Of a stretch of 64,000 nucleotides of DNA, positions 53,922 to 60,142 are shown in pieces. The stretch is from Patescibacteria group bacterium (lineage in GTDB: Bacteria; Patescibacteriota; Patescibacteriia; Veblenbacterales; UBA10138), in contig JAHITT010000001.1 in NCBI GenBank assembly GCA_018817715.1, positions 109,781-173,780 on the forward strand, written 5' to 3'. The translations under genes and the position numbers were made by a program. The notes below the pieces were generated by a model. The model ran no database searches and was not told the DNA's origin. It worked only from the letters and a program-made list of their open reading frames with translations. Numbering within the stretch: position 1 is the stretch's first letter; each line of letters starts with the position of its first letter.

Positions 53922-54536
53922 TTATTTCTCAGCTACAATTGATACCAAACCTTTAAAAGCTCCCGGCACCGCTCCTTTAACTAACAACTCATTATTGGCG
54001 GCATCCACACCCATAATTTCTAAATTATGAACAGTAACTTTTTGGCCACCCATTCGACCGGCCATGCGCATACCCTTACGGACATGTTGCACTCCACCAG
54101 CACCGATTGAACCCGGCATACGAGATTGATCTTTATGGCCGTGACTAGAAGGATGACCCTTAAAACCATGGCGCTTAACCACACCTTGAAAACCTAAGCC
54201 TTTGGCCTTAGCAGTTATAGCCACCTTATCACCTAATTGAAACTGATTAACATCCAAAACCTGGCCAATTTCTAAATTAGTTTCCGTCGGAATATCAAAC
54301 TCTTGCAAATGCCTTAAATTTTTACCTACAGCCTTAAGATGACCTTGCAAGGGTTTGCTAACTTTCTTCTTTTCGGCAAAACCGACCTGAACCGCTCTGT
54401 AACCATCTTTATCATCTTCTTTAATTTGAGTAACCCAACAAGGCCCAGCTTTTAACCTAGTTACAGCCACTGCTTGGCCGTCTGGTAAAAAGAGACGTTC
54501 CATATTCTGTTTATGAGCAAGAATCAATTTAGACAT
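53922..54536 (-). CDS. rplC: 50S ribosomal protein L3
   Basis: ...GFKGHPSSHGHKDQSRMPGSIG... Confidence 0.9.
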   Translation of the reverse strand: MSKLILAHKQNMERLFLPDGQAVAVTRLKAGPCWVTQIKEDDKDGYRAVQVGFAEKKKVSKPLQGHLKAVGKNLRHLQEFDIPTETNLEIGQVLDVNQFQLGDKVAITAKAKGLGFQGVVKRHGFKGHPSSHGHKDQSRMPGSIGAGGVQHVRKGMRMAGRMGGQKVTVHNLEIMGVDAANNELLVKGAVPGAFKGLVSIVAEK

Positions 54537-54786
54537 AAATACTTTAAGTACTAAAAAACCGCTTAACTTATCTTAATGTAAAACAATAACCAACTTGACT
54601 GACTGCTCCAATAAGTAAACGGTTTCATAAATATTTTCTGATTTAGTAGCTGTGAATTTAACTTCTAAGTTGGTAATTATACTCCTAATAACCCTTATTT
54701 TTAAATTGGCTAGCTAGCGATTGCAGGTTTGTTTTCTTGGGAAAACACCGTACACAAGGCCAAAGCTAAAGGGTCACCAATTAATT

Positions 54787-55146
54787 CTACATTTTTATCT
54801 CAACATCGACACCGGCTGGCAAATTAAGGTTGGTTAAACCATCAATGGTTTTGGCTGTTGGATCCAGTATATCCAAAAGCCTCTTATGTATTCTCATTTC
54901 ATATTGTTCCCGAGCGTTCTTATGAACAAAACTGGAACTATTTACGGTATAACGCGTTAATTCGGTTGGTAAAGGTATTGGTCCAACCACTCTGGCACCA
55001 GTCCTTTGAGCTGTTTCCAAAATCGTGCGCATGGCTTGATCAATAATTTTATGGTCATAAGCTCGAATTTTTATTCGAACCCTAGACTTACTTTCCTCTT
55101 CTGACGCGGGTTTATTAACCTTATTGTCTGTCGTGTTAGTTACCAT
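54787..55146 (-). CDS. rpsJ: 30S ribosomal protein S10 with about 20-aa N-terminal extension
   Basis: ...RIKIRAYDHKIIDQAMRTILETAQRTGARVVGPIPLPT... Confidence 0.9.
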   Translation of the reverse strand: MVTNTTDNKVNKPASEEESKSRVRIKIRAYDHKIIDQAMRTILETAQRTGARVVGPIPLPTELTRYTVNSSSFVHKNAREQYEMRIHKRLLDILDPTAKTIDGLTNLNLPAGVDVEIKM

Positions 55147-55191
55147 ACCGCAATTAAATCTTTTATTTTAAGTAAAGAGCTATTTTATAAA

Positions 55192-56394
55192 TTATTTAAC
55201 AATAGCCGATACCACACCAGCGCCGACGGTTCGACCGCCTTCACGTATGGCAAAACGTTGGGTAGCTTCCAAAGCTACTGGTGAAATTAACTTAACGTTA
55301 ATTTTAAGTTTATCGCCCGGCATAACCATTTCCGTACCTTCTGGCAAAATAACTTCACCTGTTACATCGGTTGTTCTAATGTAAAACTGAGGCTTATAAC
55401 CTTTTAAGAATGGTGTATGACGACCGCCTTCATCTTTAGTCAAAACATAAATCTCAGCTTCAAATTCAGTATGTGGAGTAACCGTACCTGGTTTGGCCAA
55501 AACCTGACCTCGTTCCACATCGTCCTTTTTTAAACCCCGCAAAAGCAACCCGGCATTATCACCAGCTCGCCCCTCATCTAACTGTTTATTAAACATTTCA
55601 ATACCAGTCACCACAGTCTTTTGAGTGTCTCTTAAACCAATTACTTCAACTTCATCATTCAACTTTAAAATACCACGCTCAATACGGCCAGTTACCACCG
55701 TACCTCGGCCTTCAATAGAAAAAATATCTTCAATCGGCATTAAGAAAGTTTTGTCCACTTCGCGAGTTGGCTCGGGAATATATTCATCTACTTTATTAAC
55801 CAATTCCATAATAGACTGAACATAAGGATCATCAGCTTTACCAGCCTTAGCCGCTTCCAAAGCCTTTAAAGCGCTACCGCGAATAATTGGGGTAGTATCA
55901 CCAGGAAATTCATATTTCTTAAGCAAATCCCTAACTTCTTCTTCCACCAAATCAATTAAATCTTTATCATCCACCATGTCAACTTTATTCAAAAAAACCA
56001 CAATATAAGGCACACCTACCTGACGAGCCAATAAAATATGCTCGCGAGTCTGAGGCATTGGACCATCAGCCGCCGACACAACTAAAATAGCGCCGTCCAT
56101 CTGGGCCGCACCAGTAATCATGTTTTTTACATAATCAGCGTGACCTGGACAATCCACGTGAGCGTAATGCCTCTTGCCTGATTCGTATTCAACGTGAGCG
56201 GTATTAATAGTAATACCACGAGCCTTTTCTTCCGGAGCATTGTCAATCTGATCGACTGACTTGTCCTGAGAAGCATGGCCACCCAACTTAAGTACCTGCA
56301 ACAAAGCCGCGGTCAAAGTAGTTTTGCCGTGGTCAACGTGACCGATAGTACCGATATTAATATGCGGTTTAGAACGGTCAAATTTGTCTGCCAT
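55192..56394 (-). CDS. tuf: elongation factor Tu
   Basis: [29 protein letters not shown]. Confidence 0.95.
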
Positions 56395-56554
56395 ATTGAT
56401 TAACTCCTTTACGGCCCTAACTTATCCTGTTTTATTAGATTAACAGGCGCTAAGTTTAGCCAAAAATAATATCTAAAAAAAATATTTAATAATTTAGTAG
56501 CTTGCTTACTCTAGCACGACTTTAAAACTTTAGCAAGTCCCCCCTTAAGGACCT

Positions 56555-56884
56555 TTAGATTGGTTCGGGGTAATACTCGTCATCATTACTTAACCCGCCA
56601 ACTAAACCACCTATTTCCTCCACCTCACCTAATTTAGACTGCGGTAAAGCAATTGGTTCGACTGGTTTACTTTTAGGTGGCCGACCGCGCTTCTTAGTAG
56701 CTGAAGGTGCTAAAGAATTTTTAATAGGTAACGAATCAAGATTTTTTTTACCTTTTACTAAAGCCTCATAATGTTCCAAAGAAGTCAGAATTAAAGTTTG
56801 ACCAGATGGTAATATTACCACCACTTTATCACTGACTGGTCCTAGTAATGCAGCTAAACGTTGCCAATCCAAAACCTCTGACAT
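56555..56884 (-). CDS. hypothetical protein (109 aa) inserted between fusA and tuf, with an AT-hook-like KKRGRPPKSKP motif
   Basis: ORF 3 nt downstream of the fusA stop. The N-terminal half is hydrophobic/structured and the C-terminal half is acidic (DDEYYPEPI). Confidence 0.45.
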   Translation of the reverse strand: MSEVLDWQRLAALLGPVSDKVVVILPSGQTLILTSLEHYEALVKGKKNLDSLPIKNSLAPSATKKRGRPPKSKPVEPIALPQSKLGEVEEIGGLVGGLSNDDEYYPEPI

Positions 56885-56887
56885 AAA

Positions 56888-58966
56888 TTAACTCTTAGCT
56901 TTATCGCCGATTATGGTTTCGGCTACGTGCCGAGGCACTTCAGCGTAATGATCAAACTCCATAGTATTAGAACCACGGCCTTGGGTCATTGACCGAAGAT
57001 TAGTGGCATAGCCGAACATTTCCGATAAAGGCACCAGAGCATCCACCACTTTGGCGTTAGTTCGATCACGCATTTCTAATATTTGACCTCGTTTGGAATT
57101 TAAATCACCAATTACATCACCCATAAAATTTTCCGGCATAACAACTTCTATTTTCATAATCGGTTCTAAAATAACCGGAGTAGCTTGCCTAAAAGCCGAC
57201 TGAAAAGCCATAGAACCAGCAATTTTAAAAGCCGCTTCGGAAGAGTCCACATCATGATAACTACCATCGTAAACAGCCGCCTTAATATCGACCACTGGAT
57301 AACCGGCCAAAATACCATTTTCTAAAGCTTCTTTAATACCTTTTTGGATAGCTGGGATAAATTCACGAGGAATCACACCGCCTCTAACTTCATCAATAAA
57401 TTCAAAACCTTTACCAGTTTCATTCGGCTCTACCCTTACCCAACAATGACCATATTGACCATGGCCACCAGATTGACGGATATATTTACCTTCCGCCTGA
57501 GCGATTTTAGTAATAGTTTCTTTATAAGCCACCTGGGGACGACCAACATTAGCCTCCACCTTAAACTCGCGTCTCATTCTATCAACAATCACATCTAAAT
57601 GTAATTCACCCATTCCCCAAATAATTAACTGACCTGTTTCTTCATCGCTGCGTACCCGGAAAGTTGGATCTTCTTCGGCTAACTTCTGCAAAGCTATGCC
57701 CATTTTTTCCTGATCAACTTTAGTCTTAGGCTCAATAGCCAAAGAAATAACTGGCTCAGGAAAAGTAATGGATTCTAAAATTACTGGATTAGCTTCATCG
57801 CACAAAGTATTACCAGTGGTTGTAACTTTTAAACCAACCGCCGCCACTATGTCACCAGCATAAACCTCTTGCACATCTTCGCGACTATTGGCATGCAAAC
57901 GGACAATCCGACTAATTCTTTCTCGTTCACCATTGGTTGAATTCAAAACATAAGAACCAGACTTTAAAGTACCAGAATAAACCCTAAAAAAGGCCAGCTT
58001 ACCTATAAAAGGATCGGCGGCGATTTTAAAAGCCAAAGCAGAAAAAGATTCTTTGTCATCTGTGCCACGCTTAACCTCTTCTTCTGTACCAGGTTTAAGT
58101 CCTTTAATCGGCGGCACTTCCAAAGGTGATGGCAAATAATCTATAACCCCATCCAACAAAAATTGAACACCTTTATTTTTTAAAGCTGAACCACAAAATA
58201 TCGGCACGATTTTATTAGCAATACAAGCCTGCCGTAAAACCTTTTTTAAATCGGCTACTGGAATTTCTTTGCCTTCTAAATAAACGCTTAATAATTTATC
58301 ATCATGCTCGGCTATGGCTTCAATTAATTTATGGCGATATTCTTCCACTTTGTCTTTCATGTCTTCGGGCACGGCTATCTCTTCCCATTCTTTACCCATA
58401 TCATCTTTATAAATAACTGCTTGACGAGTAAGTAAATCTATAATGCCAGTAAAAGTTTCGGCCGCGCCAATTGGTAATTGAACTGGAAAAGCACTTTTAG
58501 TTAAACGTTCGTGAATGGAAGCAACATCAGCATAAAAATCAGCACCCATACGATCCATTTTGTTTATAAAGGCCAAACGTGGCACTTTGTATTCATCAGC
58601 ATAGCGCCAATTAGTTTCCGATTGTGGCTCTACACCAGCTACACCATCAAAAACCACTACACCACCATCTAAAACGCGCATACTACGTTTAACTTCCACA
58701 GTAAAATCAATATGACCCGGTGTATCTATTAAATTAATTTGATGCCCTTTCCAAAAACAAGTGGTAGCGGCGGCGGTTATAGTAATACCTCTTTCTCTTT
58801 CTTGTTCCATCCAATCCATAGTAGCTTCACCTTCATGAACTTCGCCAATTTTATGTTTTTTGCCAGTATAAAACAAAATACGCTCGGAAACGGTTGTTTT
58901 ACCAGCATCAATATGAGCAATTACCCCTATATTACGTACTTTATCCAAACTGTATTCACGAGCCAT
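56888..58966 (-). CDS. fusA: elongation factor G
   Basis: [23 protein letters not shown], 692 aa. Confidence 0.95.
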
Positions 58967-59069: not shown

Positions 59070-59537
59070 TTAAGCAAAATGAGCAAAAGCACGGTTGGCT
59101 TCGGCCATACGATGCACATCCTGTTTTTTCTTAATGGCATCACCTTCATTGTTAGCAGCCGCCATTAATTCCTCGGCCAATTTTAAATGTGTCGGGCGGC
59201 CCTTTTTGGCTCGAGTAGCAGTAATTATCCAACGCATGGCCAAAGTTTGCTTGCGATCTCCCCGAACTTCAATGGGCACTTGATAATTAGCCCCACCTAC
59301 TCGGCGGCTTTTTACTTCTACTTGAGGAGAAACGTTCTTCATAGCCTCATCAAACAAATCCAAAGGTGGCTGTTTGGTCTTTTTTTCCATTTCCGCCAAA
59401 GCTTCATACATTATTTTTCTGGCTACGGTTTTTTTACCGCGTTCCATCAAATGATTTATAAACTTGGCCAACACTACACTGCCGTATTTAGGATCTGGTT
59501 CAATTACTCTTTTAATTGCTTGCTTTTTGCCTCTCAT
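59070..59537 (-). CDS. rpsG: 30S ribosomal protein S7
   Basis: Operon position, conserved core. Confidence 0.9.
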   Translation of the reverse strand: MRGKKQAIKRVIEPDPKYGSVVLAKFINHLMERGKKTVARKIMYEALAEMEKKTKQPPLDLFDEAMKNVSPQVEVKSRRVGGANYQVPIEVRGDRKQTLAMRWIITATRAKKGRPTHLKLAEELMAAANNEGDAIKKKQDVHRMAEANRAFAHFA

Positions 59538-59551
59538 AAATAATCTTAAGC

Positions 59552-59971
59552 TTAGGATTTAGGTTTTTTAACGCCGTATAAAGAACGACCTTGTTTTCTG
59601 TTTTCTACTCCCGAAGTATCATAAACTCCCCTAACAATATGATAACGAACACCTGGTAAATCTTTTACTCGGCCACCCCGGATTAAAACAATAGAGTGCT
59701 CTTGTAAATTATGCCCCACGCCCGGAATATAAGCGGTTACTTCCATACCATTAGACAGGCGAACACGGGCGATTTTCCGCAAAGCTGAGTTAGGTTTTTT
59801 TGGTGTCGTAGTAGTTACCTTAACGCAAACCCCTCTTTTAAAAGCGCTACCCTTAGATAAATAAGTACGCTTGCGCCTTTGGACATTAAAAATAGATTCC
59901 AAGGCTGGAGTTTTGGATTTTTTAGGTAAAGTCTTGCGACCTTTACGCAATAACTGATTTATCGTAGGCAT
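59552..59971 (-). CDS. rpsL: 30S ribosomal protein S12
   Basis: [13 protein letters not shown]...[10 protein letters not shown]... Confidence 0.95.
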
Positions 59972-60142
59972 AAATTTATAATACTTTTTGGAGCCTTAAG
60001 GATTAACCTTTAAAAGATAAAAAAACAGCTCCACCCAACTATTTATATACGGCTCGGAGTGTAACAAGTATTAAGCCGAACGTCAAGTCAAGCCTTAAAT
60101 AAGCTCACAAGTCCAATTTTATTTATAACTTCTTTAAAATTT

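Follow-up and report, generated by a model that had tools for sequence, protein, structure and literature searches.

Type II antitoxins of the Phd/YefM class, such as YefM of Escherichia coli (2A6Q), RelJ of Mycobacterium tuberculosis (3OEI) and Phd of phage P1 (3HS2), are small proteins in which a core of helix, beta-hairpin and helix precedes an intrinsically disordered, partner-binding C-terminal region. Solved YefM–DNA complexes show operator DNA bound by the hairpin wing and the N-terminal helices, the first of which (H1) carries Arg10 (PMC8717551). The C-terminal region of YefM wraps the toxin, which serves as a co-repressor, and in antitoxins of this type such a disordered region is the usual toxin-binding part (PMC8717551). 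Here, we analyze a stretch of 64,000 nucleotides (hereafter, the window) from a Patescibacteria group bacterium (contig JAHITT010000001.1, positions 109,781 to 173,780, assembly GCA_018817715.1), in which a small open reading frame (ORF) between the genes of the elongation factors EF-G (fusA) and EF-Tu (tuf) encodes a protein with a shortened version of this fold. Its family resembles the Phd/YefM antitoxins in small size, in the helix, hairpin and helix core with a disordered region behind it, and in recurrent, sub-threshold matches to the PF02604 and TIGR01552 profiles. Unlike them, it has no adjoining toxin gene in any of 32 loci and occupies, in several candidate phyla, one constant position within a housekeeping translation operon; its domain is truncated, with matches confined to profile positions 10-50 of 74 and none to the long dimer helix or to the DNA-reading H1/Arg10 region; and its C-terminal motif is new and more conserved than the N-terminal domain. 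The fold is known, and the toxin-less, tuf-linked arrangement with its new conserved tail is not.

The small ORF occupies positions 56555..56884 of the minus strand (ATG start, 109 amino acids and a stop codon in the ORF listing) and bears the NCBI label "hypothetical protein KKC17_01015", Patescibacteria group bacterium. Its ortholog P0002 (119 amino acids, 59% identity) fills the same fusA/tuf slot on another contig (locus L001), where EF-Tu and EF-G are 94% and 90% identical to those of the window. Of the six frames, that of the small ORF alone is open, both in the window and in L001. By the method of Nei and Gojobori, the ratio of nonsynonymous to synonymous divergence (dN/dS) between these two orthologs is 0.33 over the whole gene, with 0.19 for residues 1-45 and 0.47 for the remainder; the corresponding value for tuf, at a similar dS of ~1, is 0.036. 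The small ORF is a real protein-coding gene under purifying selection. A preliminary description of this DNA had reported it as an extra ORF in the str/S10 region, and this was correct, down to the exact sequence quoted: homologs lie in the same slot in every related locus, the frame of the ortholog is open and codon-level conservation is evident, with neither absence nor frameshift seen.

When 1.84 billion representative proteins were searched with phmmer, there were 13 matches: 12 small relatives of 93-119 residues and one unrelated protein, P0006. A profile search extended these to 65 clusters (73-129 residues) with a sharp edge at an E-value of ~1e-8. The tight family defined in this way has 66 protein clusters, and some counts refer to 64 sequences; a profile built from both the family and its divergent homologs collected 125 clusters. 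The source names of some of these 125 are Veblenbacteria, Kerfeldbacteria, Falkowbacteria (which fall in the Parcubacteria group in the NCBI taxonomy), Sungbacteria and simply "Parcubacteria group"; on this spread, read from the source names of a minority of the clusters, the small protein appears to be specific to the Parcubacteria group. Library scans found no Pfam, NCBIfam, PADLOC or Rfam family that covers the gene, and in PADLOC no defence-system family matched. The source names of all clusters are "hypothetical protein" save for one "Ku", the name "non-homologous end joining protein Ku" given by the Joint Genome Institute (JGI) to P0026, which no search supports. In the full-text literature, no paper was found on a gene between fusA and tuf in these bacteria, or on a tuf-linked antitoxin-like protein.

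Family alignments divide the protein into three parts: an N-terminal domain (N-domain) of ~43 residues, a linker of 12-65 residues and a C-terminal block, with a mean pairwise identity that is highest in the tail (64%), lower in the N-domain (50%) and lowest in the linker (13%). The N-domain, residues 1-43 of the window protein (56756..56884, minus strand), has the family consensus ..DLE.L.RIF.RRGERVV.V.P..EPVVLVPL.EYE.L. An AlphaFold2 (AF2) model of the window protein made with the family alignment (mean predicted local distance difference test score, pLDDT, 69) places a helix at residues 7-13, strands at 20-24 and 30-34 and a second helix at 36-43, the remainder being coil, so that the structured N-terminal half predicted in the preliminary description is borne out. 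For P0071, from the wider set (pLDDT 74), the model has helices at 2-15, 35-42 and 53-71 and strands at 19-23 and 28-32; the same helix-hairpin-helix order is thus found in two independent AF2 models. PF02604 is matched by 49 of the 66 family members at E<=0.1 (the best at 8.6e-8) and by 38 of 57 in the wider set, the alignments spanning profile positions 10-50. Members scored one by one reach 16-28.5 bits against a cut-off of 29.8, and all or nearly all of them stay under the Pfam gathering score. TIGR01552 (phd_fam) matches 21 of 64 members, all those shown at <20.8 bits. In hhalign, the family aligns with E. coli YefM at 64% probability, over the hairpin and the helix that follows it, and with P1 Phd at 12%; in a profile search of the sequences of the PDB, YefM 2A6Q ranks first (E 0.57). 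Foldseek returned S. aureus YefM chains as the best PDB matches of the window model and M. tuberculosis RelJ/YefM as that of the P0071 model, with top-match E-values for YefM/RelJ of 0.3-0.8 that are not significant alone. On these comparisons, the N-domain is a shortened Phd/YefM antitoxin-type fold, a feature that the preliminary description missed.

The wider superfamily keeps a related N-domain, with the consensus ..L.K...LI.KTGD[KR].I[VI]......VVM.L.EYE.L, and most of its members carry an extra helix, LTEDELLDKINRDIA.WK. Its tips (EDQYYIEPVE, EDPYYFESI, EERFYLEPVE, EEDRQYLEE[IV].F and EDIRLEDLPI) are acidic and aromatic and are related to the tail of the family. In the window protein, which ends ...SNDDEYYPEPI, this tail is the conserved acidic-aromatic tip LGEVEEIGGLVGGLSNDDEYYPEPI, residues 85-109 (56558..56632, minus strand). 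The family consensus is LE.IDP.QG.L.DDDQYFPEPL, followed by 0-5 more residues, and its P-E-P is invariant in the 64 aligned sequences. Related motifs recur throughout the wider superfamily, where P-E-P is not kept and the tails read YLEEV.F or RLEDLPI. Among 185,579 species genomes (one genome per species), the pattern DDQY[FY]PEP occurs at 25 sites, 15 of which are family members, all situated between fusA and tuf; by a rough estimate, the other ten are at about chance level. No other segment of the family is as well conserved as the tail, for which both AF2 models predict coil or disorder. In sequence and in these models it behaves like a docking tail, which agrees with the suggestion in the preliminary description of an acidic, aromatic C-terminus able to dock onto a partner. 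Up to five residues may follow the motif, so that no free C-terminal carboxylate need lie at a set position. At one locus (L033, 2224-2358), the slot holds only a 44-residue, extremely acidic ORF ending in ...DLDDLPI, a tail of the Sungbacteria type without an N-domain, which may be either a minimal or a decayed version.

Between the domain and the tail of the window protein lies a basic linker (residues 44-84, 56633..56755, minus strand) with a net charge of +8, rich in P, K and S and predicted to be disordered (AF2 coil, pLDDT 55-67). Family linkers are rich in P, A, K, S and Q, with a median length of 32 residues (range 12-65), neither length nor sequence being conserved. Their net charge is positive in 55 of 64 members; in a short subfamily of 73-81 residues it is neutral or acidic. 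The linker of the window protein includes the AT-hook-like motif KKRGRPPKSKP (residues 64-74, 56663..56695, minus strand) noted in the preliminary description. The motif is indeed present, and in P0001-P0004 its RGRPPK is invariant despite the divergence of the surrounding linker; its importance was nonetheless overstated. Against PF02178, the window protein scores 13.2 bits (E 0.088), under the curated cut-off of 17.4, and its relatives P0004 and P0002 score 14.1 and 12.7 bits. The canonical RGRP occurs in 4 of 66 clusters (P0001-P0004) and the GRP core in about 8; five more have a degenerate (R)RGPGRPP or RRSPGR(P/R)P, the remaining clusters have none, and the hook is absent from the wider superfamily. 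Judged from this distribution of sequences, the AT-hook is real but a lineage-specific embellishment and not the core of the protein, because RGRP is limited to P0001-P0004 and the linker of the short subfamily is neutral or acidic. AT-hooks are combined with acidic tails in the eukaryotic HMGA proteins and in the C-terminal domain of CarD from Myxococcus xanthus. Like these, the window protein pairs an R-G-R-P core and basic flanks with a strongly acidic C-terminus; unlike them, it has a single hook below the Pfam cut-off, present in few lineages and without homology to theirs, and its acidic tail carries a conserved aromatic motif. The unrelated P0006, an AT-hook repeat protein of 650 residues, has five repeats of ...AKRPRGRPPKAVSVEPLAP... 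that resemble the AT-hook of the window and the VEPIALP behind it (52% over 30 residues). This likeness is probably a convergence of low-complexity sequence, though the VEP.A.P shared after the hook is curious.

In the window, the minus strand carries, in this order, rpsL (59552-59971), rpsG (59070-59537), fusA (692 amino acids, 56888..58966), the small ORF, tuf (400 amino acids, 55192..56394), rpsJ, rplC and further genes. The loci of nine relatives, by gene calls, all have the order rpsL-rpsG-fusA-ORF-tuf-rpsJ-rplC, and the 22 distinct family loci provide no exception to the fusA/tuf slot. Ten loci of the wider superfamily all have the gene immediately 5' of tuf, making it the direct upstream neighbor of tuf in 32 of 32 loci. 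Six of these ten (L030, L032, L035, L038, L109 and L110) show the fusA-ORF-tuf order and two (L029 and L034) begin at a contig end; in L031 and L111, the upstream neighbor is a gene other than fusA and the ORF still directly precedes tuf-rpsJ. Because these two loci retain the ORF-tuf pair without fusA, which is the upstream neighbor in the window and in most loci, the conserved genomic partner is tuf and not fusA, against the link to EF-G proposed in the preliminary description. Across all 32 loci, tuf lies downstream behind its own promoter and either fusA or an unrelated gene lies upstream, so that a two-gene toxin operon was found in none. Outgroup loci were taken from a metagenome scan with EF-Tu. 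In ordinary bacteria, the gap between fusA and tuf is 21-72 nucleotides (nt); in the nearest lineages, whose EF-Tu is 75-79% identical, it is 311-887 nt and contains divergent homologs recognized by the hidden Markov model of the family.

At the junction with fusA (56885..56890, minus strand), the sequence ...AGT TAA TTT ATG... places a 3-nt spacer, TTT, between the TAA of fusA and the ATG of the ORF, and 160 nt separate the stop of the ORF from the ATG of tuf; both distances are as first described. Because of this 3-nt gap and of a weak AAGAG Shine-Dalgarno sequence situated within the 3' end of fusA, the ORF of the window is probably translated by coupling to fusA. The ORF is also in frame with fusA, and a fusion of EF-G to the small protein by stop-codon readthrough was considered and rejected: elsewhere, the gap (2, 3, 4, 9, 12 or 127-270 nt) and the frame vary, so that the shared frame is a coincidence. 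The long spacers (127-270 nt; L010 4826-5000, L011 4874-5000 and L012 4731-5000) are full of long imperfect inverted repeats, CAAATCCCAAA / TTTGGGATTTG-like units that may be terminators or a family of genomic repeat elements.

On the other side of the gene, the preliminary description had allowed room for a tuf promoter, and a conserved promoter of the tuf/S10 operon was located there, at 56508..56536 (minus strand). It has a -35 TTGCTA, a 17-nt spacer and an extended -10 TG-C-TAGAGT, and this is the only such match in the window. A simple promoter scan of the window did not flag it; comparison across loci revealed it. All family loci have a -35 TTG[CT]CA, a spacer of 17-18 nt and an extended -10 TGnTAnAnT followed by GAACAAGC or AAGCAAGC, with G/C-rich bases immediately 5' of the -35, and equivalent strong promoters are present in several loci of the wider superfamily. 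Since this promoter separates the ORF from tuf, the ORF is the last gene before an independent tuf-S10 promoter. The tuf 5' leader that follows (56395..56507, minus strand) has an AAGGAG Shine-Dalgarno sequence and a conserved closing helix, GGCTAAACTTAG.../...TAAGTTAGGGCC; across loci, such leaders are ~100-150 nt long and also have a conserved closing helix.

Why should an antitoxin-type protein be tied so strictly to tuf? The reading that we put first, as a tentative proposal and by analogy, is that it is a domesticated, toxin-less regulator or adaptor in which the logic of the type II antitoxins has been retained and turned to housekeeping. Its N-domain would dimerize, giving a bivalent molecule whose disordered tips could fold onto a highly conserved cellular partner, much as the tails of Phd/YefM do on their toxins. 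As a committed guess, this partner might be EF-Tu or another translation GTPase; EF-Tu is the candidate because it is encoded by the invariable neighbor of the gene and is an extremely conserved protein. A weak affinity for AT-rich DNA beside the tuf promoter might come from the N-domain combined with the basic linker or AT-hook, so that expression of the tuf-S10 operon could respond to the amount of free partner, just as a toxin acts as co-repressor in toxin-antitoxin operons. Such an affinity for DNA is plausible by analogy with the YefM–DNA complexes, given the excess of positively charged linkers in the family and the gain of AT-hook-like GRP motifs in several lineages.

Several observations weigh against this proposal. 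The window protein itself has no match to PF02604 even at E<=10, and its assignment to the Phd/YefM class follows from its homology to members that do match. Its first helix has only seven residues in the AF2 model, and the H1/Arg10 region of YefM corresponds to Pfam positions before ~10-15, outside the profile matches. The N-domain has a net charge of -1 to -4 in most members, and a basic linker is not universal, as it is neutral or acidic in the short subfamily and in many members of the wider superfamily. The tuf and str promoters yielded neither a conserved palindrome nor a conserved operator; an apparent inverted repeat around the tuf promoter failed a covariation test. This repeat, CTTGC...GCAAG, surrounds the tuf promoter in the window, L001 and L002 and appears to co-vary to CTTGT...ACAAG in L004 and L007; because L014, L015 and L017 pair TTGCC with ACAAG, the downstream block is a conserved start region rather than a half-site, and the idea of an operator was abandoned. 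Finally, EF-Tu is so abundant that a small protein made from a weakly initiated ORF could hardly act by simply sequestering it.

For these reasons (H1/Arg10 unmatched, an acidic N-domain, no conserved palindrome and basic linkers that are not universal), a protein-only adaptor or regulator of the translation machinery is nearly as likely as the domesticated, DNA-binding regulator, though on its own rather improbable. A Phd/YefM-like dimer module would then bear two flexible arms whose acidic-hydrophobic tips bring in, hold or inhibit a translation GTPase or a site on the ribosome, and would not bind DNA. Acidic-hydrophobic docking tails are found at the tip of bacterial SSB (DDDIPF) and in the P-stalk of archaeal and eukaryotic ribosomes, whose tails bind translation GTPases. 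The tuf-linked proteins have a similar design, in which a presumed oligomerization domain is joined through a flexible linker to an acidic stretch that closes with aromatic or aliphatic residues at or near the C-terminus, and their gene adjoins, or lies between, genes of two such GTPases. This likeness is architectural, there being no homology of sequence or fold to either system. What is common to the whole superfamily is limited to the N-domain and the acidic-aromatic tip, the charge of the linker being variable; several tail types finish exactly at the C-terminus as acidic-acidic-aliphatic-(P)-F/I; the gene lies among translation genes in every one of the 32 loci; and translational coupling is suggested by the short gap (2-12 nt) behind fusA in many loci. 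An adaptor without affinity for DNA leaves unexplained, however, both the recurrent gain of AT-hook-like motifs and the persistence of the gene at the tuf promoter rather than anywhere in a ribosomal operon.

A bolder form of these ideas, and a doubtful one, is that the antitoxin fold was recruited as a sensor of core translation factors. The conserved tail might bind EF-Tu alone, or both EF-G and EF-Tu by way of a GTPase surface common to the two, and the bound factor would take the role of a toxin, as co-repressor or titrating ligand; alternatively, the protein might be a bacterial analogue of the P-stalk tails that hands factors to the ribosome. If the former were true, there would be a direct feedback from free elongation factor to the tuf-S10 promoter in Parcubacteria-group bacteria, which are poor in standard regulators.

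The other readings are weaker than both the domesticated regulator and the protein-only adaptor. The one advanced in the preliminary description, an AT-hook accessory factor that binds the nucleoid or rRNA and is co-regulated with EF-G, is unlikely. The good core KKRGRPPKSK, its conservation in a subclade, the +8 linker of the window protein and the start of the ORF 3 nt past the stop of fusA all favored it; but the hook is confined to 4 of the 66 clusters (about 8 for the GRP core), is missing from the wider superfamily and scores under the PF02178 cut-off, the conserved linkage is to tuf rather than fusA, and selection is strongest on the N-domain and tail and not on the basic patch. We are equally skeptical of a classical orphan antitoxin that neutralizes a toxin encoded elsewhere or delivered by phages or competitors (e.g., a Doc- or YoeB-like one directed at translation) and for which the present position would be a safe, highly expressed harbor. 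In its favor are the Phd/YefM fold and the partners of this antitoxin class, YoeB and Doc among them, which act on translation. The disordered C-terminal region, too, is the part that usually binds the toxin in such antitoxins (PMC8717551). Against this stand the lack of an adjoining toxin in all 32 loci and of any PADLOC defence-system match, a position that does not vary and has been passed on vertically in several candidate phyla, whereas toxin-antitoxin modules are mobile, and a tail more conserved than the N-domain, the opposite of what is seen in fast-evolving toxin-antitoxin interfaces.

It is very improbable that the product acts as a regulatory nascent peptide, whose C-terminal ~25 residues would, from within the ribosomal exit tunnel, stall the ribosome near the stop codon and so sense translation capacity, with folding of the N-domain outside the tunnel modulating the stall. 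Conservation is strongest in just these last ~25 residues, with the invariant P-E-P beside the stop, the shortest members keep ~34 residues from the end of the N-domain to the C-terminus, roughly the length of the tunnel, and the gene lies upstream of a tightly regulated one. In leader peptides such as SecM, MifM, TnaC or those of the RAPP type, however, mRNA structure or termination couples the stall site to expression of a downstream gene on the same transcript; here a strong independent promoter separates the ORF from tuf, and a stalled ribosome has no obvious route to control the latter. Moreover, P-E-P is not retained in the wider superfamily, a leader peptide would not be expected to contain a folded, conserved N-domain of the antitoxin type, and the tuf leader of the window folds no better than shuffled sequences (z -0.74). 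As for a spurious ORF or a decaying, functionless remnant, to which the "hypothetical" annotation and the lack of any database family match for the window protein save the weak AT-hook might point, it is effectively refuted by the dN/dS of 0.33, by >120 homologous clusters, by the complete synteny of the 32 loci and by the intact domain and tail.

In the candidate phyla radiation, genomes are very small and many regulators and ribosome factors have been lost, yet Veblen-, Kerfeld-, Falkow- and Sungbacteria, together with unnamed lineages of the Parcubacteria group, have kept this gene in a fixed place at the head of the tuf-S10 operon. Such retention suggests a component or regulator of the core translation machinery that is peculiar to these lineages, and the gene would also illustrate clearly how an antitoxin fold can be domesticated in the absence of its toxin. 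With the tail motif as a peptide handle, the partner could be sought, and whichever it is (EF-Tu, RNA polymerase, the ribosome or a protease), it would enlarge what little is known of the physiology of these organisms. The family, whose members are now called "hypothetical protein", merits a database entry of its own.

A few further features of these loci deserve mention. The closing helix of the tuf leader reads GGCTAA.../...GGGCCGT in the family of the window and ACGGCTGG...GGGGGCCGT in distant loci (L029, L030, L032, L109 and L110); the leader may be an unannotated cis-regulatory or processing element. With Rfam 15, nothing in the window matched at the gathering score besides five tRNA genes near 4 kb and 31 kb, and nothing at E<=1 within 54400-57000. 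The strong promoters (that at 56508-56541, those of related loci and the str promoter near 60060-60095) combine an extended -10 (TGn) with GGGGC, GGGAC or CCCC before the -35. This G/C block at the -35, in a genome of 38% G+C, may be a lineage-specific promoter feature.

Between rpsJ and rplC (54537-54786, minus strand) lies a non-coding gap, of 190-415 nt across the window and L001, L002, L004, L007, L008, L010-L013 and L109-L111. In the loci of the window family, it contains two conserved elements, a hairpin, GTGTACGGTG-loop-AAACCTGCAA, and a long terminator-like hairpin, AACCGTTTAC...GTAAGCGGTTTTTT, which a simple terminator scan misses because its loop is long. RNAalifold found no pairs in this terminator-like element, its 5' arm being misaligned, and Rfam has no match for either; they could be an attenuator or a ribosomal-protein leader before rplC-rplD. 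The neighboring rpsJ (54787-55146) encodes an S10 of 119 residues with an N-terminal extension of ~17 residues (MVTNTTDNKVNKPASEEESKS...), S10 being usually ~102 residues long, and in related loci the protein is of similar size (117-123 residues).

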